This document shows, in pieces, positions 18,701 to 49,475 of a stretch of 64,000 nt of DNA. Below the pieces are notes generated by a model. It ran no database searches, was not told where the DNA came from, and worked only from the letters and a program-made list of their open reading frames with translations. The stretch comes from Octopus vulgaris (lineage: Eukaryota). Numbering within the stretch: the stretch's first letter is position 1; every line of letters begins with the position of its first letter. The position numbers and the translations under genes were made by a program. The stretch lies in NCBI GenBank assembly GCA_951406725.2, contig OX597815.1, positions 173,476,001-173,540,000 on the forward strand. The letters run 5' to 3'.

Positions 18701-19839
18701 CTAAGTGACCATTCAGGAAATGGCATTAGTGGCTGTAGACTTGAGTTAGAAAAACATGCTTATTTCTCCTTTAATAAAAATATGCAGACTTGACATCCAT
18801 CCTTCATTCTTAACATTGTCCCACTCAACTCACATTTTACATGGATCAGCCCTCTGTGCTACCAAACTACCTTTCCCTCTCTAGTGAACCAGTTCCAGTT
18901 GACTTGCCCTACCATACATCTCTCACTCTCCTTATGCATTACACCTGTCCCTACCCTCATATTCTTGCAACCTACCCACCCACATGGCAGCTCCCTTTCT
19001 CACAGCCTTCCCCAGCTTACTGGATTATTATTGTTATTATTTTAACAATTCTGCTGTTCATCACCTCTTTCTGCACTGCCAGTCATCACCTACACTTTCC
19101 TACTTTCTCTGCAGCCTATATTAATCAGTAGCTAGTCTTCAAACCTTTTTCACCATTCATTATATTGATCCACTCCTATCTCTACATCATCTTTAATTCA
19201 TGCCATACACTCTTGCAACCTTTATCCACCAACCTTTCCTATTCTGTCTTCATTCAATTCTTCTCACATTCTTGTATCTGACACCTCATCTCCACCATTT
19301 CTTTCTCTTTTTTTCAGTTTCACCACAATTACTCCCACCTCCTCTTGTATAATGCAAGTAGCCATGTTTCTCCTCCACTACAAGAAAAGTGCTCCGACCC
19401 CTTCATTTACACTTTTTGTCTCTTATTACATAGTCAAAGGAGATCTTAGTCTTTTGAGCTACATGGTGACCTTACTAAAGCTGGTACAATCACAAAAAAC
19501 ACCCAGTATATTATGTAAGGTGGTTGGTACAACGAAGACCATCCAGCTGTAGAAACTATAACAAAATAAACAATGGAACATGATGCAGTCCTTCAACCCA
19601 TTGGATCCTGTCAAACTATCAAACAAGCATGGAAGACAGACATACAAAGATGATGAAGATGATGTAAACTATATAAGATGTGAATTAGAAATGAGAAAAT
19701 GGGATAGTTTATAGCAATAAAATATACACAGAAGTTGCAGAAAACCTGTGAAGATAATCTAATGGATATACAACATTAGTTTGCAAGAAAGGAGGTGATA
19801 ATGACAAAAAAAAACTAGGTGAGTAAAATATTGAAAGAT

Positions 19840-31154: not shown

Positions 31155-31356
31155 ATGCTTTATGTAATGCTTATTTACTCACATTGTTTTGAATTAATCA
31201 TGCATTATCTTGTAGCTTTGAGATTTTAATGATGTGATTGAATATTTTTAGAATGGCATTCAGGGTAGGTGTAAGAGGCTGAGTCTGCCAAGTTTGAAAA
31301 CAAAACAGGTAGAATATATGAGCTGGATATAACCGGTTTACATGCTAAAGGCTTAA
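31155..31356 (+). mobile_element. piggyBac-like MITE (5'-truncated copy)
   Basis: Same body as 34426-34646; ends atgctaaaggc-TTAA. Confidence 0.6.
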
Positions 31357-31998: not shown

Positions 31999-32412
31999 CT
32001 TTAGCTTGTCTTCTTGCTTCGAAAAATCTTCAAAGTCTCTTCCTGTCAGCTCCTGTGAACTTAACTGTTGTTGAACAGCTGAAATACTCCGAAGAATCTC
32101 CTTCAATTCATTTGTATACTGAGAAGAAGTTTTTGAGTTAAGAATGCTTTTGGAAAGGTGGCTTGAGACAGCAGTTAGTGTAGTTTTTGTAATAGCTTTC
32201 TCCGAAGCAACGGCAGCAACTGTAGCTGTAGTGCCTGAGTCCAGAGCATGTCTGCATTGTAAGCTCTGGGAGCGAAGATCCTGCCATCGTCTGTTGAGTT
32301 TTAGGAGTTCAGGTTCCACGATTTCTAAAGCTTCTTTACCTTTTAGTTCTTCCCCACTTCTGTTTAAACTATCCACATCCCTCTGTCTTCTTTTTAGTTC
32401 CTCTTCAACTGC
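31999..32412 (-). CDS. DMD: Internal coding exon of dystrophin (dystrophin/utrophin orthologue): end of spectrin repeat 15, linker, start of repeat 16
   Basis: Acceptor atttttatttttttag|GCA at 32413/32412 and donor AAG|gtaaat at 31999/31998; 414 nt, 138 codons, no stop. Translation AVEEELKRRQRDVDSLNRSGEELKGKEALEIVEPELLKLNRRWQDLRSQ...SQYTNELKEILRSISAVQQQLSSQELTGRDFEDFSKQEDKLK aligns by eye to human dystrophin EIDRELQKKKEELNAVRRQAEGL...VEPTQIQLSKRWREIESK...STYLTEITHVSQALLEVEQLLNAPDLCAKDFEDLFKQEESLK (recalled sequence, exons 41-42). Confidence 0.92.
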
Positions 32413-32599
32413 CTAAAAAAAATAAAAAATACACTTGTAAGTTTAAGAGAGGGATGTAGTCAATAATCAAAAGACTAAAGCCTTAATTACAATGATAATA
32501 AGAGGAATTTTTTCAAAGACTTCAAAAGAAGGTATTTGAACATATAATAATAGAAAGATATGACAAATAATTTTTAATCAAAGAGGTAGTCATTATCAT

Positions 32600-33065
32600 A
32601 GGAGCAGACATAACTGAGTGATTAGAAAGTTCACTTAGTAACTATGTGTTTTGGGGTTCAATCCCACTATGTGATACCTCCTTAGGCAAGTATATCCTAC
32701 TATGGCCTCAAGTTGATCCATGCTTTATGGGTGAAATTTGTGGGAGGGAAACTGTATAGAAACCCATTGTAAACATAGGGGTGAGGAGAGAAGGAAAGAG
32801 GGAGAGAGAGAGCATGAAAGACTTGTCTCCATATCTTTACACCAGCACTGCTTAGACAGCTATGACATTCATTTATATTCTGTATAAACGATATTTCAGA
32901 ACTTGGTGGTTTAAACATGTGAAGTCTAGAGAAATAAAGTGTCTTATTTGAAAACAAGTAAGGGCTGACATTAGAAAAAGCATCTGACTATTGACAATTG
33001 TCTTAAGAAGTCTTGTCCAACTCTTACCAGCATGGAGAAATCAGATATAAAAATGATGATGATGA
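32600..33065 (+). mobile_element. tRNA-derived SINE (decayed) with (GAT)n tail
   Basis: B box ggttcaatccc at 32655-32665, ggcaagt core, ccagcatgga...gatgatgatgac tail. Confidence 0.7.
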
Positions 33066-33417
33066 CATGCTAAAAATATATCCTGGCATATACTGGATGC
33101 TAAAGTTTCAAATTAATATATTTGAGCTTTGAATTTTCTTGAGGCACTAAGTGTATATGTGTATGGTTTCAAATCAGAAAATCTTAAATGTTTTTACAAG
33201 TGTTTCAGGTGTGGTCTATATTTATATAAATGTATGTGTATTTCTATAAATAAAATTAAAATAACTCTATTCAGAGTTCCTTAATAGCAGCTTAATTTCA
33301 TGATTATTTTTGCTAGAAATATTTGACTTGATTTAGTTGTTGGGGTTTAACAGATATTTCTCCTTTCTATGAATAACACGTGTAAAAGTGGTTGGAAATG
33401 CACACACACACACACAC

Positions 33418-33565
33418 TGTGTGGTAAAAAGTTTGCTTCCCCACTACATGATTCCAGGTTCAGTCCTACTGTGTTGCACTTTGGGCAAGTGTCTTCTACT
33501 ACAGTTTTGGGTCAACTAAAGCATTGTGAGTGGATTTGGTAGATGGAAACTGCCAGAAGCCAGTC

Positions 33566-33596
<31 letters not shown>

Positions 33597-33740
33597 CACC
33601 ACTGCTTGACAACCAGCGCTGGCATGCCTATGTCCTTGTAACTTAGCATTTCAGCAAAAGAAACTGATATAACAATTTCCTCAAGGAGATGTCCCAGCAT
33701 GGCCATAGACTAATGACTAAAACAAGTAAAAGATAAAAAA
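33418..33740 (+). mobile_element. tRNA-derived SINE, inverse orientation to the 19840-20308 copy
   Basis: tgtgtggtaa...ggttcagtcc...ttgggcaagtgtcttctact...aaacaagtaaaagat. Confidence 0.85.
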
Positions 33741-34425
33741 TACACACACAAGGGCCTAGATGTGCAGAAGTTCATGTGATTTTGGATTAGGTCTCTTTGT
33801 GTCTTTTACTGTAGTCTCAGGTTGACTAATAACTTAAGAGTAAATTCTGAAAGATGGAAGCGCTGAAGAAGCCTGATGTATGTATATACATATAATGTAC
33901 ACACATATATATGTTGAAGCACATAGACAAAGAGACATGGTCGATCAAAATGAAACAAAACACTTTGTATAATGGGGCCCTTAATATATTAGACAATGAT
34001 GATATTATTAGACTCCATGACATACAGGAGGACAATGATCATGACTACTATGCCTCTTATACAACCTAGAAACTATAACAACTAAAGAAGACAATGTAGA
34101 GGATCAATCTGCTAGAAACAGCAGCCAAAGCTCAATCAGATTGTACCCCACCACCTTAAAAAAAAAATGATGCATAAGAGATCGCCATTCCTGACATACA
34201 AAATAGATGGGATGGCCAGAGTCAAAGGTTTTTATCACAGATCTACATAACCAAGGCTGGGACTACACAACTAAGAATGTTTATAGTCAAATAGAAAACT
34301 TTTGTTTCAGTGATTCTCTGTTATTTACCTTATTGGATGGATGTATTTTACCATTTACCTTCTTACTTCTGTGCAAAAATACATACTATTAAATCTTTAT
34401 ATATAAAATCCACTGCCAATGCCAA

Positions 34426-34646
34426 CCCTTTAGCATTCAGATTTCTCTGTCAAATGCAGTGCTTATTTATTCACATTATCTTGAATTAATCAAGTATAAG
34501 CTTGTAGCTTTGAAATTTCAATGATGTGACTGTTTATTTTTTAGAATAACATTGTAGAGTAGGTGTGAGAGGCTAGATCTGGTCAGTTTGAACATAAAAC
34601 AGGTAGAATCTTTGGGCTGGATATAACTGGTTTAAATACTGAAGGG
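34426..34646 (+). mobile_element. piggyBac-like MITE
   Basis: Imperfect TIRs ccctttagcatt / aatactgaaggg flanked by degenerate TTAA (ccaa / tcaa); second copy at 31155. Confidence 0.6.
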
Positions 34647-37600
34647 TCAAGAGTCTGTGTTACATGCTAGCATAGAAAACAGATGCTAAATAATGATAAT
34701 TCTAAATGATAGGTGAACCCAAATTAGTAATGAGTGGGCCCAGGAAGAAACAAATTAAGCAGAAGCACTCTTATTCAGATGGAAAAAAAAAGTAAAAATT
34801 ATATAACTACAAGAATCTCTGGGAATTTTTAAAAATTGATCTTTAAAAACTTTCATTTTTTTATCATATTGATTTCTTAATGAATTATAAAATACAAAAT
34901 TAAATTGTTCCCATCTGAGGCTATTTTACAAACTAACTATTACACGGCTTATATAGTTAAAGTAAAGTGTCATTATATAAGTGAAAAGAACAGGCAATTT
35001 TAGTAAATAAATAGATGTCATTCTTATTCAAAGGAAGTTGTTATGAAAAAAACCAGAACAGCTAATTGTGATTTATTGAATACAATTTTTTTTAATATGT
35101 TCATTACATAGGTAAAAATGTAATCACAATTATATGATTATGCTATTTATTTATTAAAATATAGATGTACTCTAATCATATAAATAAATTTAATTGGATT
35201 ACTATATAGTTTTTGGCAATAAAAATTACATATTTATGCTATTTGGTCACCAACATTCAAAACTTCCTTCTGCAATATTACTGTACTATCAATAGTACTA
35301 CAAGCAAGCACAAAATGGAAGAAAATTGTAGAAATCAGGAAAAATAGTAGGTTATTTTTCACCAAATGTTCTTGAGGAAAACCCTAAGAATTTTGAACCT
35401 CGATCTTTTCACAAGTGAAGATGTCTTGAGAAGAGCATTGTTGTGAAGACTTCATGTCATGCTAATGGCACAAAGATCATGCCTAATTGGTTACATCCAA
35501 CTGCAGCTAGATAAATGGAGTATAGGCACCACCACAAAAAGAATAAAATGGAGAAAACTAATGGCCATATGGCATTAAAACTTTCTGGGAGTTTTGACAG
35601 CTGTTATCAATAGACACTAGAAAAAGAACACAATCAATCAAGAACATTGGAAGAAGTACAGTCTAATGTGTGAATGTGATTTCAAAAATTGCATGGTTGC
35701 TTCACTCCAGCAATATTAATAATTATTTAAAAAAATTATATAATAAAAGTGAACCATACTTCCATATCTCAGAATGTATTTTATATATTAGGCTACAAGG
35801 TATTTTTGGTGCAGAGGTGTAAAATATAATTGATATATTTTCCTTCAATAATCATAGTTTTTCATAATCTCAAAATAAATACTGTACAAATTTGCATATA
35901 GTTTCATTTCAAGTAAAGGCTCCAAGTTCATTTCAAATTACTAACTGAAACACAAGCACTCACACTCACTCACACACACACACACACACACACAAATAGA
36001 AATATGTTAAATGAAATATGTTTAAGATGCTTTGAGCAGTTTGTGCATATTGGAACAACATCAACAGAAAGATAAACTTTTATTCATATAATATTAGTAA
36101 ATGAAATATCTATTGCATTATCTGAAACTTAAAGGGAACATAGATATATTTCTCTAGCTTTTGTTATCAAAATTCAGTATAAAATTGTTTAGTTACCAAT
36201 GTCTGTTATGGGTATAGCAATATTAACAGTTTGCAGAAATACAATTATATTAAACTTAAAAAAAGAAGAAAGTAATCTCACAAGAATTTAATATCAATGA
36301 GTGGTTTATTAAAGCAACGAGAAAAGGAATTTCCAAAGAAAAATATCAAAAATCAATCCAAAGGTTTTTGCTTAGAATCAATAGACAGATTTCCATTTTG
36401 CTAGAATTGATACATTTCAGAAAATTAAAATTTCTTAGTAGCTGCAAATCGAAGAAACTTATTTTGTACTTTTTGAAATTGCCTCATGAGGTAAAATCTA
36501 CAAATGAAATATTAAACAAAATTACTCATGTGTAGTTTAAACTAATTATGGATGAGAAATAGGTATCAATGAAGCAGAAAAAAGAGTAATGAGTGCAGTT
36601 ACATCTGACTGGGAATTGAGGACCAAGGATGGTTTGGTTTAGAAGGTGACTGAATGGTAATTGAATCTGTCAACAACTGAGAAGATAATTTGGTAGAAGT
36701 ACAGAGCAGAATTAATATAGTAATTAAACTCTTACCCTGTTTATTTTAATATTTTGTCATTTCTTTGGATACTCAAGATTCTTAAGTTAATAATATTATA
36801 AGGTTTCAAATAATCAAAAAGATTAAGTATAAAAAGATATCAAATTATTCCTAAGAAGCATATTCTGGCAGTTTTATTTCCAAAATTATGAAGCATAAGA
36901 AGTTTGACAAACGAAGACTAAAATAAATAAATTAAATGAATAAATTCATAAAGTCTCTTGAAATAATTAAACTAGAAAAATACAAATGTGATCTTATTTC
37001 AGCTAGGCACATGCATAGACACACATGCCAAATATATTATTCACATTAATGTGAGCCTTGAGGATTATGCACAATTTAGCAGTTTAGGTATCTTCTGTTA
37101 GACATCAAATTGGTTACGTAAATTTGATAGCATTTGTAATTGCACTGAACCCTTTCTCAGTAAGATATGAAGTTTAGTATTTTAGTATTCTGTATTGTGT
37201 TTGGTACTGTATACATACATATATATATGATTCTTATTAGAAGCCTCTTTATGAAACACTAGCTTATAGCATTTTGATTCTAGTTTCATTAAGAGAAATT
37301 TGTTAAATATGCCTGTACATTTCCATCGTTTTCATTCTCTAGTTTGAGAAACCTAGAGTTTAAAACTGCTTCTCACTTTGAACATTTAACTTCATTTAGA
37401 CATGAAAAGATAGGCTCTGTCAATTATCTATACAAATATAGAAGAACAATTCTTAAAACAATTCTTAATTTGGTCAATATTTCTAATGTCTTACTACTAC
37501 TGACTTGCTCCTCATTGTACCAGACATGCAGTGTCATCCATGTCATAAATAACACATAAGCATCTTTAAAACATGACTAAGCCCATTATCACCAAAAAAC

Positions 37601-39170
37601 ACAGAAACAAAATTCAAATGTATGAAATTCTGGCAACAAATTAAAATATCTGGAGAAATCCATTTAATGCCTTTCCTAATAATTGAAACATGCCTTTGGC
37701 AGATTCCATTTTAAGTAAACTGAAGATATTCAGTTTATTCTGTTAGACGATGTACAATCTGTTAGATGATGCACACATTTTAACATTTCATATCAACGAG
37801 GCAACTTTGTTTTTTCATAATGAAAATGAAATGTGGTGGAATCTTACGTCTATTGCAAACTATATAACTTGAATGGATCAAATTATATTAAATTAATCAG
37901 TGTTTCTAAATCATGCAAAGTAAACTCTTCAAGTAATTATTGCTAATCTTCACTGAAAGATTATATTAACATACATACATGTATATTTAATAAATATTTA
38001 GTGGAGAGAGGGAAAGAATATATAAATGCATGTACATGTCTATTTTATGCATACACACACACACAAAATTAAATATTTTTTTCCTAGGCAATGGCTTATA
38101 TATGAATTTCTGCTAAGGTGAAGCTAGTTAGGGACACCTTTGAAAAATTCTCTCCAAATTACTTTATGCAACATTCATGATTCTACGTGAGCAATAAATG
38201 TATCTATCTTCAGTGATGAAGATAAAATTACAGGTAACTGAATCAAAAGGTTTAGTTCTTCTTTGTACCAGGTCTTTTTACAAAGTTCCAAATTGAACTC
38301 TTTTGTAGGTTTAATTTATGAAAATATTGTTAGGAATATATTGCATTGGAGAAAACATGAAAGTAAATTATTGTATTTGATAGCATGTAAGATGAACATA
38401 GAAAAAAAAAGTTTAAAAACATCGCCCTAAATCCTATATGCAAAACTGCATAAGCTCTAATGCATTGAAAACTTTTATCCTGAATATGAGCTGCTGAAAT
38501 TAGGGTGTATCTAAAATGCCTGTACATCTTTTATGCCATCAAACGCAGTAATGTCACTGTTTATTGTAAGGATAGTGGGATGGTCGAAAGGCTAATGTAA
38601 AGCAGGTGGATGGCTGTAAAGTACTGGATAAAATATTTTGAAATACATAGTTTCCCATTACATTGGGGGAGGGGGATCTTTTATTTTTCTAAAAGATTGA
38701 TTAAAATAAGTATCTGTTTTGTAGTGATGGTTGATTTAATCAACTGTGACTTCCCTTAAATTCCTGAACTTGTGATAATGTTAAGAATCAATATTAATGA
38801 TTTATGGGAAATAAAATAAAAATTTAGGCTGGTAAAAATAACTCTGCAAAGTTAGTTTAGTGCCTATCCTAATTAATATAAGTAAAAATATTCAATAGTA
38901 TTTAGCAGGTGTCTGCAAGGAATAGAATAAACCACAAGAAATTTTAACCTAGTTACAAAAGCATTAATTTAAATTAAGAAAATGTTATATATAATACTAG
39001 ATTCCACAATAAATAAAATATCTAGGCAGAATTTCTTTGGTAAGTTTTTCCCTTTTGTTTTATAACAATTAGATTTAATAATTTTTATCTTGTGACAATT
39101 GCTTTAAAATGATTTGAAAAATTAGAGACATTAAAATAAAGAACAAGCCTGAAGTAATACAACAAATGAC

Positions 39171-39236
39171 TAAGATTAAGAGAATTTTATACATTCTAAT
39201 TGTAAGATTAAGAGAATTTTATATCTTCTAATTGTA
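39171..39236. repeat. Tandem duplication, 2 x 32 bp
   Basis: taagattaagagaattttata..ttctaattg occurs twice in tandem. Confidence 0.9.
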
Positions 39237-42200
39237 GTAGTCCATTGTCTAAGGATTAGAACTTATAACCATTATAATCTCATAGATCTATAACTTCTCC
39301 ATCTTACATACTGTAGTATATAGATAAATGATTGACAAAATAAAACTAAGCTAAACAGATTTTGATCAAGAATTATAATCATAAGACTGTTTAAATTTGA
39401 TTTTCACTTTACTATGCATCTAAAAACATTGTATTTTCGAAGTTGAAAGAGTTTATATATGTTTGTAAATGTTATAAAATCTTTTTTTGTATAATATTTT
39501 TCAGCTCTGCAGGGTATGTTGTTTAATTAATGTGATAATAATATTGTTCTAATCAATATGTCAATCTGATCATTATTGTACACCTATCACTTTTAGTTCA
39601 ATCCCAAAACATCATGAGGAGGCCAGTGATAGAAGACAGAATTTGAACTCAGAATGCAAAGGATGAAAGGCAAAGTTGACCTCCATAGGATGTGAACTCA
39701 GGTTGCAGAAAGCAAGAGCAAATAATATAAGGCATTTTACCTGAAGCTTTAACAGCTGTCAAGTTACTTGCCTTAATTTGTATATTTTTGTTGAAATCAA
39801 AAATTCAGTATTATCTCATTGGTCTATTTTTTTCCTTACTTGATCTAAAATTTTAAAAAATTATTCACAAAACTTTTGATAAATAAACTTATGTTTTCCT
39901 TCTGACAAAGATATGACAATTGGAAAATGGTTGAAGTGATGTATAACCAATATATTCTAAATTAGATAGGCAATATATTTGACAAGATAGAGATTTCATG
40001 GGATTGTTTACTAGGTTTACCTTCTCTTCATTCAATTAAATAATGTATTTTCAACTCTAGTCTTATTGACATAAAATACATAGAGAAAACCAAGAATGTT
40101 TATTAATTGCTTTTCCTTTACAAAGAAAGCATAAGGAGTATGAAAAGTCAGCATAATTCTTGTCAAAGTGATTTAGGAGGAAGAAACCGAAAAGTAAAAT
40201 TATCCACCTGAATATGATTTTGGTCTGGATTAAAATAGTAACAAATTGAATTTGTTTCATGAAATATGTGTTCAAACCAAGTTTAGAAGACAGAACAATG
40301 GCTGAATGAGATACATAAAAATAGGTAATTTGTACTGATAGAAACAGAATGGCAATTTGTGGAGAGGCTAAAAGTTCCAGAAATAAGTATTTCTATATGT
40401 ACTTTGTAATCTATATCACCATAATAACATTTCTGACAAATGAGATGTCTTTAGTGAATTAATCAGTGATACAGACAGATATAGAATAATCCAGAAAATA
40501 TTTGACTTAAGACAGAATGCCAAAAATTTTTTTAAATAAGTTATTCTATTTTATGAGAAGCAAAACTAGATACTAAGCATCACAGCTAATCCAGAAGTTC
40601 ATGTTAAATGCTTCAAATGAGCTGAGAGATAAGCTATATTGGATCTAACAGTAGTAGAACTTCAGTTCTATATGATACAGATACTCGTCAATTCAAACTG
40701 TACTGCACTGCTCTCCATATATATATTTTGATAGCTATTGAACATTTCTTTATTATTATTATTATTTTCAAGTATTAATTAGATATATTAAGGAAGTTCA
40801 AGGAATCTCTTAGACATTTTTAATCATTCAGGCACTACTAAACCTCATTATTTAGGAATTATTACAAAGATCTTTATTAAAAATGAAATTATTTCAAGAT
40901 CTATAACAATCGCTGATGGGAAGGTTTCATCAAAGTATGCTGACATGAATAATTGCATTTTGAGTAGAATACTCACAATTTTTGGATATATTAGGAAGCC
41001 TACCTCAACTACTTGAACAAAACATCAACCATATCCAAGAAGTCACATGAGAATGAATATTCACAAATTATGTCTCACAGGGCAATATGTAACACTGAAC
41101 ATAGTGGTGGTGGTGGTGGTGATAATGATGATGATCAGGTTGGTGATGAAACATGGGCCAAATATCACTTTTCTGCACTTACTAATACATAATGATTTAA
41201 GAGTTTGAAATGTTCAGAAGGACTATGCACTTGCCAAATGCATGTAACATATACCAACATCACATGACAAATAATATATTTTTTCGAGTGCACTCTCATA
41301 TCTGTGCACCAAAAACCAGCGATTCCTTACACATTACTGAAGGTGGCAGTGTCATTGATCCAAAGAAAATGAAACTCAATATTACTGGAAATAAAATTTT
41401 ATGCCTAAAAAATACCCTTTTCTACAATATCAAATTCTGAGTAACACAAAAGTTATATAATTTGAGCAAGTCATAAAATAAATTGTCAGACATTGAGATT
41501 ATTATCATATGATTTTTTTGAGGTTTATACACCAAATGAAGTACGTATGTAACAAAAAAAAGTTTAATCTGAAACATTTTAATGAGACTGAGACCATACC
41601 TCTAATGTAGTAGTGTCATTTAGTGACTACACTTTACCAATATGTGCAAATTACAATGAAGTAATATAACTAAAGTCTTCCTTGTTTTTAAATAAAACAC
41701 ATAAAATTGTTAATTTTTAATTTGATAGCAAGAGTATTTTAAAAAAATTCATTAATTTATATATTGAATAGCTTCAAACTTTTACAGGCTGAAAGCTGGA
41801 TCTGAATAAATTTCTATTTCTTAACTAATTAGTTTAGGATAACTAAACTATTTAAAATTTTGATATAAATGTTAAACTGATCCAGTTGCTCTCTCAGTTA
41901 ATAAAAATATCAAAGATATATTGTCTATTTCAAAACATTAACAATACAAAATCAAGAAAATCTTGAATGAAGTAGTGTATGATACACTATATAAATACCC
42001 ACTATTAACCTGAAGGAAATTTATGTATACATGAAACTATCTCAAAGGAGATATTTTTTATGGGTGGAGATTCTACCTCACTGACACAGTATCAGTTGCT
42101 TTTCATGTAGTGCAAAATACTTTTATTCCATCTGCTACTTTCAATTGATTCACTTAACAAGATGGGCTCTTCATATCATTTTGATCTGGAAGCTTATGTA

Positions 42201-43967
42201 CAGATGGTTGTTTATTCCAACAATACAAACAAAATATTTGCTTGAAATACATTTTTAAAAAGTTATATAACAAAACACAAGTTTAAAATATTAAAAATAA
42301 TGTTAATTTATTTATAAGAGGTTGTGTTTATTAGTCTCTAAATGGTCTCTAATTTACAAATTAATATTTAACTTAATCTATAAAGGAAATGGAATTTGCA
42401 CATATTCATAGCATAAAAGGTATTTAGTAATACCACCTATAAGTTATAGATGCAAATTTTCTTTGTTATATTGCTATAAAGTATAACTCTTTTTTGTTTG
42501 TTTGATTTCAATCAAATTATACAATGAAATACAAATTGCGTTAAATTAATATTTTCACAGAAATATCCAGTCTTTTATGCCAAAAATAATTTTATAAATT
42601 AATGATCCTAACTCTTTATATCAAAAATATATAAAACAAATTAAATTATGCAAATGATGAGTGCACAACAATTTAGCTCAATATAGACAATTCTTTAATT
42701 GTTTCTTTTTTATCATGTCTTATCTACACTCCAATACTGACCAGCCTTTGTCTACTAAAAGCAATATTCCTTTCCTACTTCGAACAATCTTCTCATTAAA
42801 CACAATTCAGCTATTTTCACTTTTAACTCCAAGACAGTATTTTGATGTTACAAAATGCTATTATACAAGACTATAGAAATGAAAATCTTTTTCTTCAATA
42901 GTCCCTCCCTATATTTTGCTCTTAAACACACACACACACATACAGAAATAATAGGTAAAGTAAAGAATTTTGAGAGTTAAAAAGATATATTCTACTCAAT
43001 TTTTACAAGTAAGCATTGTAAGCTTTGCTTAAATAGGACGTATTGCAGTAATACAAAATCAACATTAGAACACACATATACCACCCTCCTCGACAACAAA
43101 CTTAATACTGATGACACATCAACAAATAATTAGCTTTGTAAAGAGTAGACAGAGAGCTTTGTAAGTGAGCAGTTAGTGCAAGGCATAACCCTTAACAGCC
43201 TCATAACTGCAAATGAGCAGCAGCACCCAAATGGAAACGGATTGATAAAATGTAAGAAAGATTCTAAATATGCTGGTTGTTATAAAGAAAAACTATTTTA
43301 ACTTTTTAACAATAGAGTGATAATGAAGTACCACCAAACTACCACAACTCACTACTGGCAATATAAATACAAAATATGAGGTAAAGAAGAATCAGAATAA
43401 TTTTCTGTAATAGCTTCAATCTTGTTTCTTTGCCAAATATTTAACATATGATAGATAGCAGGTGGGCTTTGTTTGATGATGATGATGATGATGATGACGA
43501 TGATAGTGGTAATGATAATCAACAACATATCATAGCAAAAATATTACTTTTATTCTGACCGTATGAATTAAAGACAAGGACGGAAGGGAATTAACCACTA
43601 AGAAATACTGAGGTAGTGCATTCATAGCATTTTCAACAGTAGAAGATAAAACAGCTAAGTGTTTACGTGTGTGTGTGTATATGAAAGAAAAAACTAGCAA
43701 CATTTTAATTAGTATTGAAAAAACCAGGGTATCTTCATGCCAATTATTAATTCAATTATATAAGAAATTTAAGATAATTAACATAATTTCATGTTTATTG
43801 ATTACTTAATTCCTTAAATGATTACGAGAGTCATTAAACTGCTTCTGATAGGTCCTACATCAAAATATTAGTTTTTGTTTGATACACATTGTTTCAGCTT
43901 GATCTAAATAAAGCATTGAAGAGATAACAAAAGAGTTATTTCTATACTAGTATAGTTAAAACCATAT

Positions 43968-44121
43968 GATGGTTGCTGTTAGGAAGAGCATCCAGCTGTA
44001 AACACTCTGCCAAAACAGACAGTGAAGCCTGGTGCAGTCTTCTGTCAAGCCAGCCCCTGATAAATCATCTAACCCATGCCAGCATGGAAAACAGACGTTA
44101 AATGACAACGATGATGATGAT
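43968..44121 (+). mobile_element. SINE/LINE-tail repeat with (GAT)n tail
   Basis: Reverse-complement homolog of 24105-24260. Confidence 0.75.
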
Positions 44122-44360
44122 AAAAACTAATTTACAAGAGAAAGAGTAAAAATTGGCTAAAACGCTTTAAGTCTTGTTTCTACTGTCTCCTTTCTTCTTT
44201 CCCAACACTCTATGAAATGAACTATTTAGAGTTTAATGTAAAAAATTGGAATACATTTGAGAAAGAAAAGTAAAACTGGCCCACTTTTGATGTTTGAACC
44301 ATGTAGCAGCACCTGCCAAGTTACCTCATAACCAATTACACCACAGAGTATTTACATAAT

Positions 44361-44719
44361 TAACAAGAGCACAAACCTTTGCCAAGGCAACACCAATGTC
44401 CTCTCAACGATTAGCCACAGATGATTTTTAAAATGAGAATATCTGAAATAAACTCGACTGCTCTCACAAATGAGAATACCAAAAATGAACTTGAGTGCTC
44501 TCAAAAGTTAAGTAAAAAAGAAAAAAAAAAAAAAGGAAAAATAATCCAGAATCCTTGTCCAGTACCAGAATGATCCCAATTCTAATCAGTCACAAGGCCA
44601 AACATCCCTGAAAGTTTCATCTGAATCCATCCAGCAGTTCTTGAGATATCTTGTCCACGGGCAAACAAACAAACATGACTAAAAACAATACCTTCGCCTT
44701 TGCTAAGGTGGAGGTAATA
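44361..44719 (-). mobile_element. Non-autonomous Helentron-associated (HINE/DINE-1-like) element
   Basis: Minus strand starts tattacctccaccttagc, has a short internal inverted repeat and a (GTTT)n microsatellite, and ends with ccttggcaaaggt (inverted to the 5' acctccacc..ag). Confidence 0.55.
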
Positions 44720-45999
44720 ATGTGGTCATCTAGTAAGCTATAGATACATGATTTAAAGACTGTCAGTGACCCTGTTTCTCTTCTCTGTCTGAAATTGGTG
44801 GTAATAATTATCACTTTAGAAAGCCAGTCCTAGCTTCTGGTTGATCACTAATTTTAATTATCAACCTTTAGCATTTTTTTGAGACCTAATATTTCCTTCC
44901 TACATACATTCTAGTGGTAACAGCAGAGAATGTCTTAATTTACACTGCTCGACAGATGAAAAATGTATCACTGATATTAAATAAGCCATGCAAGAATAGA
45001 AAGAAAAAAAAAGATATATGTAAAAATCATGATGCACAAATAAAGATGAAATGTCCCACCTAGTAAAGTGATGAAAGTGAAACAAATTTTGAAAATTTAA
45101 TTTCAAGTTTCATCTCTGAATATATAGGCCCAAGGAAAATTATGAACAGAAATAACAGATACAACCAATAATGAAGAATTTATATAATATTGAAGCTGAC
45201 TGAGGGATCAAAATATTCTAAGTGTTTATGAGAACAAATTTCATTTGCTTCAACAAAATGGAGTTCCAGTTGAACAAATGTTGGAAAACGAAAAAAAACA
45301 ACAAAACATTGAAAGTATTAAACATTTTGAAATAAGTATCAAAGTGCATTTTGTATTCATGTTTGTGCATGCATATGTTCAGGCTCATCATTTATGCTAA
45401 AAAACATACAATTTATACCCTGCAAACAATAAACATCATATGGATCATGCTGCTGAAATAAGCAGAGATCAAATGTTATTGTAAAGGAGAAAACACTTTC
45501 AGCATACATAGTATAAATATTACGAATTAAAGTTAACTAACTGGAAAGCTGCGAAGAAATTAAGAGTGACTTGTATCTATCATGATTTCACTATAAGATT
45601 CTGATTGTAATGTAAAAGGTAAACAACAACAATATATTGTGAAGTATTTCATACTCATAATTACAGAACTATCAAAGCATGGAACAACCCTCATCACTTA
45701 ACTGTCAGGACACTGCATTCCTTAAAAGTTCCATGCTTTCCAAAATTTGCCAACACTACTCCTGATGTGTCTGTGAACCTTTATATAGCTCTTTTACTGT
45801 TTCCTTTAATTTACGCCTTTTTATCCTGCATGCTAATGCATGCACTTTTGGGTGTAATTGCTCTTTTTCTTTCCTTGGCTTACTGCTGTTTTTTGAGCAC
45901 TGTATGCGATAAACTCATTCTCATTATTTTTAATGTTTTATTGAGTCTAGTAGGATGAATGATTAAGTGAGCTCTTGGTGTGTATTCTGAATTGTTTGT

Positions 46000-46250
46000 A
46001 TTATCATCACCATTATTTAATGTCTCTTTTCCATGTTCACATAGGTCAGATGGTTTGACAGGAGTTGGCAGGCTGGAGAGCTGCACCAGGCTCCAATTGT
46101 CTGTTTTGTCATGATTTCTATGGTGAAATACCCTTCCTAACGCCAGCCACTCAACAGAGTGTACTGGGTGCTTTTCATGAGGCACCAGCATGGGAGCTTT
46201 TTACATGGTACCAGCATGGATGCTTTTTATGTGGCACCTACATGGGCTAT
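46000..46250 (-). mobile_element. SINE/LINE-tail repeat
   Basis: Homolog of 24105-24260 and 55275-55592, including tandem gcacc/ccagcatgg units. Confidence 0.75.
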
Positions 46251-47552
46251 CACTAATAAAGAAAGGGAAAATTTATTCTAACTTAAATGGATGATCCACC
46301 GACAAGTTGTTTTTATTTACATCAAGGAAAACAATATGATGATATAATCTTAAAGTAAAATTATTAATTCTATTTGGATCATGTGAATATATTGTATGTA
46401 TATGTATAACCTTATGACAAAGTATACACCATATTAATTAACAATACTAGCTGAGTAGGCTGGGTATACTTTATGTGTGTGTTTACAACATTATATAAAC
46501 ACACACATGCATGTGCATATACACACACATGCATATGCATATACACACACACACCATTGTAACTCATTCCTTATATCAATACTTTAGAATATTGTTTTTA
46601 GCACTTAATTTATATCTTAAGATAACAAATGATAAAAACAGATGATAAATAGTTCTGATTTAAGCATTTAAATTTTAATGACAATTTAACAACTTTGTAT
46701 AACAGGTAGGATTTGGAAGAGAAACAGACAATGAATATTATTTTACAGTAATATATGTTCAAACACATTTATAACACACATCTATAATTGTATATTTAGG
46801 TAATAAGTGTGTATGTATGTGTTTTATGTGTGTTCATATAATAAATGAGACAACAGATGAAAGAAAATCTCTGTTTGTATATAGAAATAAATCTATTTCT
46901 AGGAATATTACTCTTAAAATTAACTTTCAGCTTGCATTATTAACAATGTAATAGCTACAATATCAAAGAAAGAAAGTAGATTCATAATTTCCCATTTAAC
47001 AAAATAATTTGATATTTAAAAACTAAATAAAACAAATGCATTTCACCATTTCAAAACATTTTTCTATTGTTTTCTTGATGAAGTTTGGTAAAGTCAGAAG
47101 AATAAACAAAGTTATGAAAAATGTGAAAATTCGAGAAAATATTGGAAATTAGAATGTTACTTTTGAAAATAGATAATTTCAATAAGAAAGAAACAGGAAA
47201 TATATATTTTAATAATATCTGAATCAAGTTAAAATTAAGTAGTAAATTTAGTTAGGAAATCAAAACAATTAAAGTAATCATAAAAGCTTAATATTTCGAT
47301 TTCAGAAATTGAAAACTAATTGTTACAGTAACTGGAGAATTCCAATCTTTTGCTTTAAGAAATTATATATTCTGTAAGAAGTAAATTATAATGACCATTT
47401 AACATTAGCTATTTGATAATTATAAGTAAATATAAAACTCTTTTAATTTAGTTTTAAAAAAAAAATTAATACAATTTATGCTCTTTTCTTTAGAGAATAG
47501 AAATTAAACTTGTGAAATATTTTAAAAGAAATGATAGTCAAAAATTATTTAC

Positions 47553-47714
47553 ATTTTTCAGCAGCCACATGCCAAAAACAAGTGCTGCAGCAATGAAGCA
47601 GAGGATGGCTAGGGATATGAGGACAGTGAGGGCTGCCACCAGTGTCACCAAATCATCAGCCATGACAGAGAGGAACACTAACACTGCTGCAGAAGTTTCA
47701 ATAATTGGGAACAT
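47553..47714 (-). CDS. Candidate alternative first coding exon encoding a transmembrane/signal-anchor N-terminus (or a standalone 58-aa membrane microprotein)
   Basis: ATG at 47714 with an in-frame TAA four codons upstream; second ATG in gtcATGG context at 47663. Translation MFPIIETSAAVLVFLSVMADDLVTLVAALTVLISLAILCFIAAALVFGMWLLKN, then gtaaat in phase 0. Non-repetitive and visibly more GC-rich than the adjacent intron. Confidence 0.55.
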
Positions 47715-49475
47715 CCAAAAGTTTTAAGTTTTCAGACTTGTTAAGTAAGGAAGTTGGTTTGGTGGTTGTAGAAAGTTAATCCAGCAGAGTTTACTGGTTC
47801 CATTCAAATGTGCAAAGAAAATACAGTAGCATCTTGTGGAAAACATATTGTATGGTCAAATTCTTCTTTCGAAACAGAAAAATCACTGGACTGTAGCAAC
47901 AAGTAAAAAAGGTAACCTCAATAACATATGGACGCTGAACCAAAGATACAGTCTGACAACAGTAACTGGCTATTCAAAAACAAAAACTTGAGTAAATCTT
48001 AATTAAAATGGAAGGATTTCTACAATTAAAGCAATCAGAATAATGACATTCCATTTTAAGTGCAGGAAGAAGATAACTTTTTAAGTTACGAAAATATTTT
48101 TGAAGAATTATCCTCTTTGAAAAAGATCCCGAAAGTTCTTTGAGTTAAATGATGACAGGTGATATACGAAAGAATAGATTTCTCAAAGCCTGTGTATATC
48201 CAAAGAAATTCTTGACTCTCTTAGTTATCTTCATTAGATGAATAAACTTTGTGCTTGTGATGAAATGACATACAGTAGATCCATGAGAAAAAGTTTGGTT
48301 TATATTTTTTAAGAAAACTTTAGCAGATCAAAAGTGTCACTGATGATAGCACAGTGTACTGTTTTAAGGTGAATGTTTTTCTTCAAATAGAAAGCAAAGC
48401 TTTAGCAAGAAATGTACAAAGTGATGACAATAATATAAACAGTGGACAAGCAAAGCTTAGAAATACTTTTGAGTTGCTGTCATACATTCACATTATTTTT
48501 AAGAAGCTATTTAAAATAAGCATTTTTGTTGAGTGTAATAGCAGACAAGGATGATGAGATGCAGCAAGGCTATTGAAGTGGACAATTATTCCATAATCCA
48601 TAATAATTTCCATAATGTACCATCTGTTTAGATGGTTGGACATATCTTACAGCAGGTAAAACACAACGCCATGTTGACAGCTACACATGACTATTGCAGA
48701 CAGAGGTAGATCTTTGGTTGGAGAGGTATAAAGTAGAAAGCTGATAATGACATAAGTAGCAAGCTAACCCCCACCCACCAACTGTATTACCCAACTTTCC
48801 CCAAACTTCAACGAAAGCTAGTAGTGTGCCAGCACCACTCTCTCTCTCTCTTTCTTTTTGAGTGGGCCCTCCTTCAAAGAAAACTGCAACTGTTACTAAA
48901 CTCTTCCTGCCACCATCCAGATACCTGATACTGCACACAAACAGCTGAACAACACACCTTCAGAACTTTCTTCATCATTCACCATCTTACATAGACTCAT
49001 GTTTTTACAACTTCTAGCAGCTGACAACAGTAGAGAGAGAGGAAGAGAGAGAGAGATCATAATGTGAGAGAAAGATAGAGCACAGTGAAGGAGGGCAGAA
49101 ATTATCATTACAAGGAAGTTATTTTAAAGTGAGGTATAAAATGTAAATACAGCAAACATTTTACAACAATTAACTATTGAGTTGTGTAGAAATAGCAAGT
49201 GATAAGAAAAGCAATACCAGAAAATGGCAAGTGATAATATTGATGATCCATAACATTATTAGTGTTGTGGAAAACAAATTAAAACAGTTTTCACCTGTTT
49301 TATGGAAGAGGGGAAAACAACAATAATTAGACGATGCAATTCCAAATAGAAAAAAAAAAATCATCTCAATGTTATTTTCCAGCTTTTGGAAAGTATATAG
49401 ATATATTGTTTAAAGACTAAAAGCAAAAAATAGACAAGAATATGCATATTTTACACAGTACTCTTTTCTTGCTAG

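Follow-up and report, generated by a model that had tools for sequence, protein, structure and literature searches.

The usual teaching is that dystrophin is a peripheral protein, one that joins actin to the membrane via dystroglycan, and the question raised by this locus is whether a cephalopod dystrophin gene can also begin at an exon that would anchor its product directly in a bilayer. The window (i.e., the whole 64,000-nucleotide stretch of DNA that was analysed) contains, on the minus strand, the 54-codon coding part of a candidate first exon at 47553..47714 (-), which the original prediction had joined to a dystrophin rod exon lying downstream. Sequence comparison identifies it as an alternative first exon that is conserved in cephalopod dystrophin, which very likely has a membrane-anchored short isoform of predicted topology. 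We regard the existence of the isoform as close to certain and the translation of its hydrophobic start as highly probable; that it is integrated into the membrane as a single-pass protein with its C-terminus inside and its rod in the cytosol is predicted, with a probability of roughly 0.7.

The reading frame itself is as originally given: it opens with the ATG at 47714 (-), runs through 47553, and is followed by GT at 47552, with the translation unchanged. The frame is closed upstream by an in-frame TAA (47726-47724), and there is no AG between that stop and the ATG, as had been claimed. The further claim that this cannot be an internal exon also stands, as all six AGs within the frame are phase 1; given phase-0 neighbours, use as an internal exon, even a shortened one, would shift the frame, and an ordinary internal cassette exon was thus rejected. 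Residues 22-52 are 31 consecutive uncharged residues, as predicted, with a best 19-residue Kyte-Doolittle mean (KD19) of 2.88; their codons, at 47559..47651 (-), are taken as the predicted membrane-spanning helix. A shorter apolar run, residues 7-19 (47658..47696, -), which reads by eye as a possible signal-peptide core, ends in V-M-A just ahead of two aspartates. The methionine of that ending is Met18, a second in-frame ATG (47661..47663, -) and a possible alternative start, whose context (G at -3 and +4) is stronger than the weak context of Met1, and which is also present in the cuttlefish-type protein P0002 described below.

The stretch from 47400 to 48900 is single-copy within the 64-kb window, in agreement with the description of the exon as unique sequence. 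Frames of at least 40 codons that start with ATG and have a KD19 of at least 2.8 occur at five places in the window, four of them elsewhere, and hydrophobicity alone is thus not beyond chance. What lifts the candidate above chance is its homologue (best match E 1e-17) together with the contig ends, and because a homologue exists, the reading as a chance frame was rejected. A 96-codon ATG frame at 18841-19131 (+), on the strand opposite dystrophin and with a KD19 of 2.85, resembles low-complexity intron sequence. A Pfam search with the 54 residues returned no family, none of 595 pattern matches in a search of metagenome contigs was confirmed, and an ESM Atlas search yielded nothing informative (top scores 0.85 and 0.77); a homodimer prediction for the 54 residues scored 0.02, which carries no weight either way.

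The frame ends in phase 0 at the donor GTAAAT (47547..47552, -), the same hexamer as at the donor of the rod exon. Positions -3 to -1 are AAT, off consensus, and the original description of a weak donor was apt. The acceptor at 32412 is likewise phase 0, and the intron of the short isoform (32413..47552, -) measures the 15,140 nt stated for it. Beyond this intron lies the shared dystrophin rod exon (31999..32412, -), which has 138 codons, is phase 0-0, and begins in the middle of a spectrin repeat. In a tblastn search with full-length P0011, a 3768-aa cephalopod dystrophin, it was the sole recognisable dystrophin exon in the window; no further dystrophin-coding piece was found in the 15,140-nt intron, and the canonical upstream exon is absent from the 64 kb. 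With no other exon found, the candidate sits in a large intron whose upstream exon lies beyond the window.

The stretch occurs in 20 of 24 entries for sequencing runs, none recorded as RNA but guessed to be so, and four runs from four studies were compared; four entries under two other organism labels contain 0.26-0.41 of its words and were excluded from the evidence. In all four runs, a rod-exon contig matches 31999-32412 exactly and then continues into other letters, as spliced RNA would, and a first-exon contig, whose upstream end lies at 48455, 48771, 48800, or 48707, extends to 47552, where it leaves the genome and ends in 27 non-genomic letters. The rod-exon contig carries two extra letters ahead of 32412. 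Adjoining contigs of a 31-mer assembly share 30 letters, and since 2 + 1 + 27 = 30 (the one being a G that fits both intron and exon), the overhangs are those expected of splicing between 47553 and 32412. That splice is likely in the window's own species, as inferred from contig overhangs and not from junction letters. The 47553/32412 joint is not among the 15 joints listed (there are 118 more) in a comparison, at likeness 90, that was swamped by repeats; a bridge needs 31 letters, and the 27-letter overhang falls below this. Contig depths and intron bins lacking coverage were left out of the evidence. High-copy repeat pieces at 31160-31260, 33690-33900, 34420-34630, 39630-39690, and 44070-44690, likely short interspersed elements, attracted thousands of contigs.

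A spliced product of this kind was found in a cuttlefish-type relative. When the 54 residues were compared with proteins of 96-2000 residues, two of 595 candidates matched, both 91% identical over the full query. They include P0002, a cuttlefish-type protein from sequencing-run contigs that starts with the exon peptide; P0010, from the 90% cluster of P0002, is a second copy of this isoform. P0002 and P0010 both have 1837 residues and occur on four and two contigs, respectively. In each, the predicted phase-0 junction lies at residue 54/55 and leads straight into the homologue of the 32412 rod exon, whereas the full-length P0011, P0013, and P0008 carry a different exon ahead of the same junction, which bears out the proposal that the short form has a first exon of its own, located in an intron of the longer one. 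The Pfam domains of P0002 are nine spectrin stretches, WW, EF-hand_2, EF-hand_3, and ZZ, with no CH; the WW match (E 1.3e-5) scores 25.5 bits, slightly under the Pfam cut-off of 26.9. P0011, by contrast, has CH and 20 repeats, and comparison of the two upholds the expected loss of the actin-binding domain with retention of the C-terminal region. P0002 has the module order of the dystrophin family, in which spectrin repeats precede WW, two EF-hand modules, and ZZ, and its 14-member cluster at 90% includes Sepia pharaonis proteins named dystrophin, P0010, and long forms. In a search of 50% clusters with residues 1-352 of P0002, none of the best 150 of 246 matches had its best stretch over the exon. 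No Octopus-labelled protein was among the results of the protein searches; an Octopus RefSeq model of the isoform may exist already. Two gastropod-type proteins, P0037 and P0082, begin 12 and 2 residues ahead of the same junction; their ends are not acceptor read-through and may be gene-model artefacts or a short first exon in other molluscs.

One further protein, P0001, is a read-through form found on six contigs: its 54 residues are followed by V-N after K-N and then by 28 unrelated residues. Its V-N beyond the exon peptide places the donor at the same position. P0001, and a shallow X11 contig (47441-47580) that crosses the donor unspliced in the window, would fit an account in which unspliced transcripts yield the functional product, a 58-aa membrane microprotein on its own, and splicing to dystrophin is incidental. 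However, the tail after the donor is only four residues long here versus 30 in P0001 and is unlike it after two residues, and the main contig leaves the genome at the donor in all four runs; we consider the microprotein very unlikely to be the working product. The exact 58-aa read-through protein of the window was not found in the protein collection.

Translation of the exon as the start of a dystrophin is favoured by its pattern of conservation. The first exon is identical to the N-terminus of P0002 at 49 of 54 residues (91%) and the rod exon at 96 of 136 (~70-71%; Fisher p=0.0025), in one pairwise comparison with a single ortholog protein sequence; in this pair of distant cephalopods, the anchor exon is thus better conserved than the rod sequence next to it. 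The ortholog has no gaps and no stops over the exon. All five changes are conservative (I/V, S/T, F/L, V/I, and L/V), an outcome with a chance of ~0.04-0.05 under a single-base model. Fourteen of residues 1-17 are kept, as are 35 of the 37 residues 18-54. Resemblance to P0001 is lost two residues beyond the donor, and P0001 lacks the window's upstream in-frame stop; the conserved unit therefore extends from Met to donor. Conservation of the exon purely at the DNA level could nonetheless be at work. The ~70% identity of the rod exon to the cuttlefish type would suit an octopod. A calibration of the octopod/cuttlefish-type split puts it at 240 Ma or older (PMC12682272); the exon would predate that split if the window is from an octopod, and would be of shallower age if it is from a squid.

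The exon had been described as 162 nt long, which is right for its 54-codon part and wrong for the whole, since the exon spans at least 0.9-1.25 kb, including a long 5' leader (47715..48800, -) that the contigs follow to their upstream ends without loose letters. By those ends, the leader is roughly 0.75-1.1 kb; they lie at 48455-48800 in all four runs, which is compatible with a transcription start of its own, although contig ends of course cannot establish one. The likely internal promoter region is 48800..49100 (-), beyond the contig ends, with GA and CT runs and locally higher G+C, and we infer from the contig ends that an internal promoter near 48.7-48.9 kb likely drives the first exon. 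The X11 contig shows five differences, all in the leader and none in the 162 coding bases, a number too small to interpret.

The leader is also where the case against translation has to be weighed. It holds 21 ATGs versus 17.8 expected, and hence no depletion; none of the 21 frames overlaps the main ATG, and an in-frame upstream ORF of 40 codons (47724..47846, -) has its TAA ending 9 nt before it. So many leader ATGs, together with the 40-codon ORF, argue for low or regulated translation, and the leader may possibly exert translational control. Taken further, the exon might be transcribed and spliced and yet hardly be translated from its own ATG, having been conserved as a regulatory DNA or RNA element, with the protein starting downstream. 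The first exon of vertebrate Dp140 is non-coding, and a ~1 kb leader rich in ATGs, an in-frame ORF so close upstream, and the weak context of Met1 would all suit an element of that kind. But the conserved segment starts at the ATG and stops at the donor, frame and phase are kept, the changes are without exception conservative, and third-position G+C of the frame is 0.50 versus 0.32 for the window, and we find a regulatory element distinctly unlikely; a translated, hydrophobic start is preferred.

The predicted isoform is a half-length dystrophin with a mass of ~211 kDa. The junction falls in the middle of a spectrin repeat, the first repeat covering Pfam positions 46-104 of 105, and in a 3652-aa vertebrate-type dystrophin the aligned site is at about residue 1885. 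We take this residue to lie at human intron 40, within repeat 15; repeats 16-24 would then remain, in agreement with the nine Pfam spectrin stretches. The original prediction that the actin-binding domain and R1-R14 are lost was thus correct as far as it went, and half of what would be the 15th repeat is gone too. A natural thought is that the apolar segment stands in for the missing helix A of the interrupted repeat. This was rejected, as the segment is uniformly apolar and not amphipathic (mean hydropathy 2.64 and moment 0.28, compared with -0.28 and 0.86 for the canonical helix) and does not fold back in AlphaFold2. The AlphaFold2 model of P0002 residues 1-352 has one helix over residues 5-79, with pLDDT ~86-91 over 21-60 from an alignment of two rows at 1-54; a fold search with this model gave spectrin repeats only among the best matches. 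Within the rod exon, 32259-32137 (-) encodes a Ser/Thr/Ala-rich linker of ~35-40 residues that separates the half repeat from the repeat after it; this linker, a hinge near the anchor, is predicted to be disordered in the P0002 model (pLDDT <50 at 111-142).

The original prediction also held that the apolar run has acidic residues before it and basic ones after it, and net charge is indeed -2 before and +1 after (15-residue flanks), a modest margin. Signal anchors are usually 19-27 residues long, and long apolar segments and a charge difference of this kind have been found to favour the N-out/C-in orientation (PMC2139883). Run length and charge difference thus favour N-out/C-in here, and the features expected of a single-pass protein of that orientation are present, namely an apolar run of at least 19 residues near the N-terminus and a C-terminal flank that is more positive. 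Residues 1-19 have, by eye, the look of a signal peptide that could be cleaved off, but a type III anchor, a cleaved signal peptide, and a start at Met18 would all result in the same final topology. A type II anchor or secretion, either of which would place the rod in the ER lumen or outside the cell, is highly improbable: residues 1-19 do resemble a signal peptide by eye, but transfer would be halted by the 31-residue run, both the length and the charges point to C-in, and the WW, EF, and ZZ modules have cytosolic partners. Somewhat more deserving of attention, although still unlikely, is a real isoform anchored by a hairpin or re-entrant (monotopic) segment at its apolar N-terminus, perhaps acylated at Cys39, with both ends cytosolic as in ER-shaping and lipid-droplet proteins. 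A run of 31 residues is longer than the usual 19-27 of signal anchors (PMC2139883), a second apolar run is available at residues 7-19, and the central Cys is kept in both species; against these, residues 22-52 contain no proline or other helix breaker, the AlphaFold2 helix is unbroken, and the flanking charges are asymmetric. The single-pass, C-in orientation is thus the one carried forward.

Short dystrophins made from internal promoters include vertebrate Dp260, Dp140, Dp116, and Dp71, and Drosophila Dp205, Dp186, and Dp117 (PMC2840664, PMC1790709). In common with them, the cephalopod isoform has an intronic unique first exon, no actin-binding domain, and the remainder of the rod with WW/EF/ZZ and coiled coil, but it keeps about nine repeats where the fly forms have 4, 2, and 0. 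No membrane-spanning segment is mentioned for the known forms in the portions of these papers that bear on them, and "transmembrane" and "hydrophobic" occur zero times in the main text of PMC1790709 (PMC2840664, PMC1790709). Among the homologues screened, there was no related N-terminus that would make the exon orthologous to a named short isoform, the fly first exons not having been directly aligned. The cephalopod junction site (the intron 40 position) is not known to be used by any of the vertebrate isoforms.

N-termini were screened for hydrophobic runs in an initial set of 165 proteins, which took in the best 150 of 246 matches from the 50% clusters. A KD19 of at least 2.0 was found in two of 127 dystrophin/utrophin-type proteins (the best 120 of 432 plus seven earlier ones), P0002 and one duck model without an initial Met, and none of 30 further cluster members had a hydrophobic N-terminus. 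P0278 (a duck utrophin model with no starting Met, 2.56), P0279 (1.96), and the sea-urchin gene-model fragments P0123 and P0307 (KD 1.97) were set aside as likely model artefacts; P0119, a protein without a name, also has a hydrophobic N-terminus (2.28). The non-cephalopod molluscs screened were a chiton, a mussel, and five snails and slugs. No such dystrophin was thus seen among the dystrophin/utrophin homologues screened outside cephalopods, a set with few non-cephalopod molluscs and mostly genome-based models, which weakly suggests that it is absent there. No transmembrane dystrophin or cephalopod dystrophin isoform was found in the full-text literature searched, outside which most subscription journals lie.

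The best functional analogue is dystonin-a2 (BPAG1a2), a spectrin-superfamily linker with an N-terminal transmembrane isoform, whose isoform-specific N-terminus contains a conserved transmembrane segment and targets it to ER and perinuclear membranes (PMC3279385, PMC3352950). Dystonin-a2 differs in belonging to the spectraplakin family and in retaining its actin-binding domain. Homology with its anchor was rejected (shuffle p 0.73 for P0049, named dystonin, and 0.36 for P0099), and without significant likeness, the shared solution would be a convergent one. In an engineered palmitoylated dystrophin R16/17, a membrane anchor beside repeats 16-17 lets that part of the rod function without the remainder of dystrophin (PMC6607532). 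The anchor of the cephalopod isoform, a natural one, would directly precede the equivalent repeats, but the engineered one is an artificial lipid anchor studied for mammalian nNOS binding, and NOS binding by the cephalopod repeats is not implied. Nesprins and junctophilins also combine long helical spacers with one transmembrane anchor, bridging membranes or membrane and cytoskeleton; however, their anchor is C-terminal and their architecture unrelated.

A mechanism may be proposed from these elements. Transcription would begin at the likely internal promoter, the exon would likely be spliced to 32412, and an isoform of ~210 kDa would be translated from Met1 or Met18 in spite of a leader full of ATGs. 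Insertion into the ER would be co-translational, either by a reverse (type III) signal anchor or by cleavage of residues 1-19 with the helix acting as a stop-transfer sequence; by either route, almost nothing would be left outside and the rod would lie inside. The exchange of exons would thereby remove the grip on actin and supply a bilayer anchor while keeping the C-terminal region that binds beta-dystroglycan. Molluscs, among them Octopus, have retained dystroglycan together with the site that binds dystrophin (PMC4582122). Held at the membrane by both ends, the protein would give the dystrophin complex a scaffold or spacer fixed to the membrane and would not link actin to the matrix, either lying along the plasma membrane or bridging the ER/SR to it. 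More speculatively, and by analogy with junctophilins, it could be a coleoid membrane-contact tether, with its N-terminal helix in the ER/SR, its C-terminus on plasma-membrane dystroglycan, and the helix binding an intrabilayer partner. Such a partner is proposed because the helix region from Met18 is conserved beyond the needs of a plain anchor. Nine repeats would extend ~45-50 nm, longer than typical contact gaps, which counts against a span from ER/SR to plasma membrane, and we hold the tether doubtful.

If the membrane-anchored isoform is real, it would position the dystrophin complex in a new manner, reached convergently with dystonin-a2, and would split the scaffolding role of dystrophin from its actin-linking role. 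It would allow a test of whether a direct anchor can replace the usual tethering, a matter of interest in that micro-dystrophin design uses artificial lipid anchors. Its reach is limited, since it is known only in cephalopods so far and its location and function are predicted.

A second short cephalopod dystrophin, of 1646 residues, was noted in P0009 (Logan) and P0004 (a Sepia pharaonis model). It has an N-terminus of its own, ~45-50 residues long and rich in Pro, Thr, and Asn, that joins the rod ~195 residues downstream of the 54/55 junction, and it likely reflects another internal promoter.
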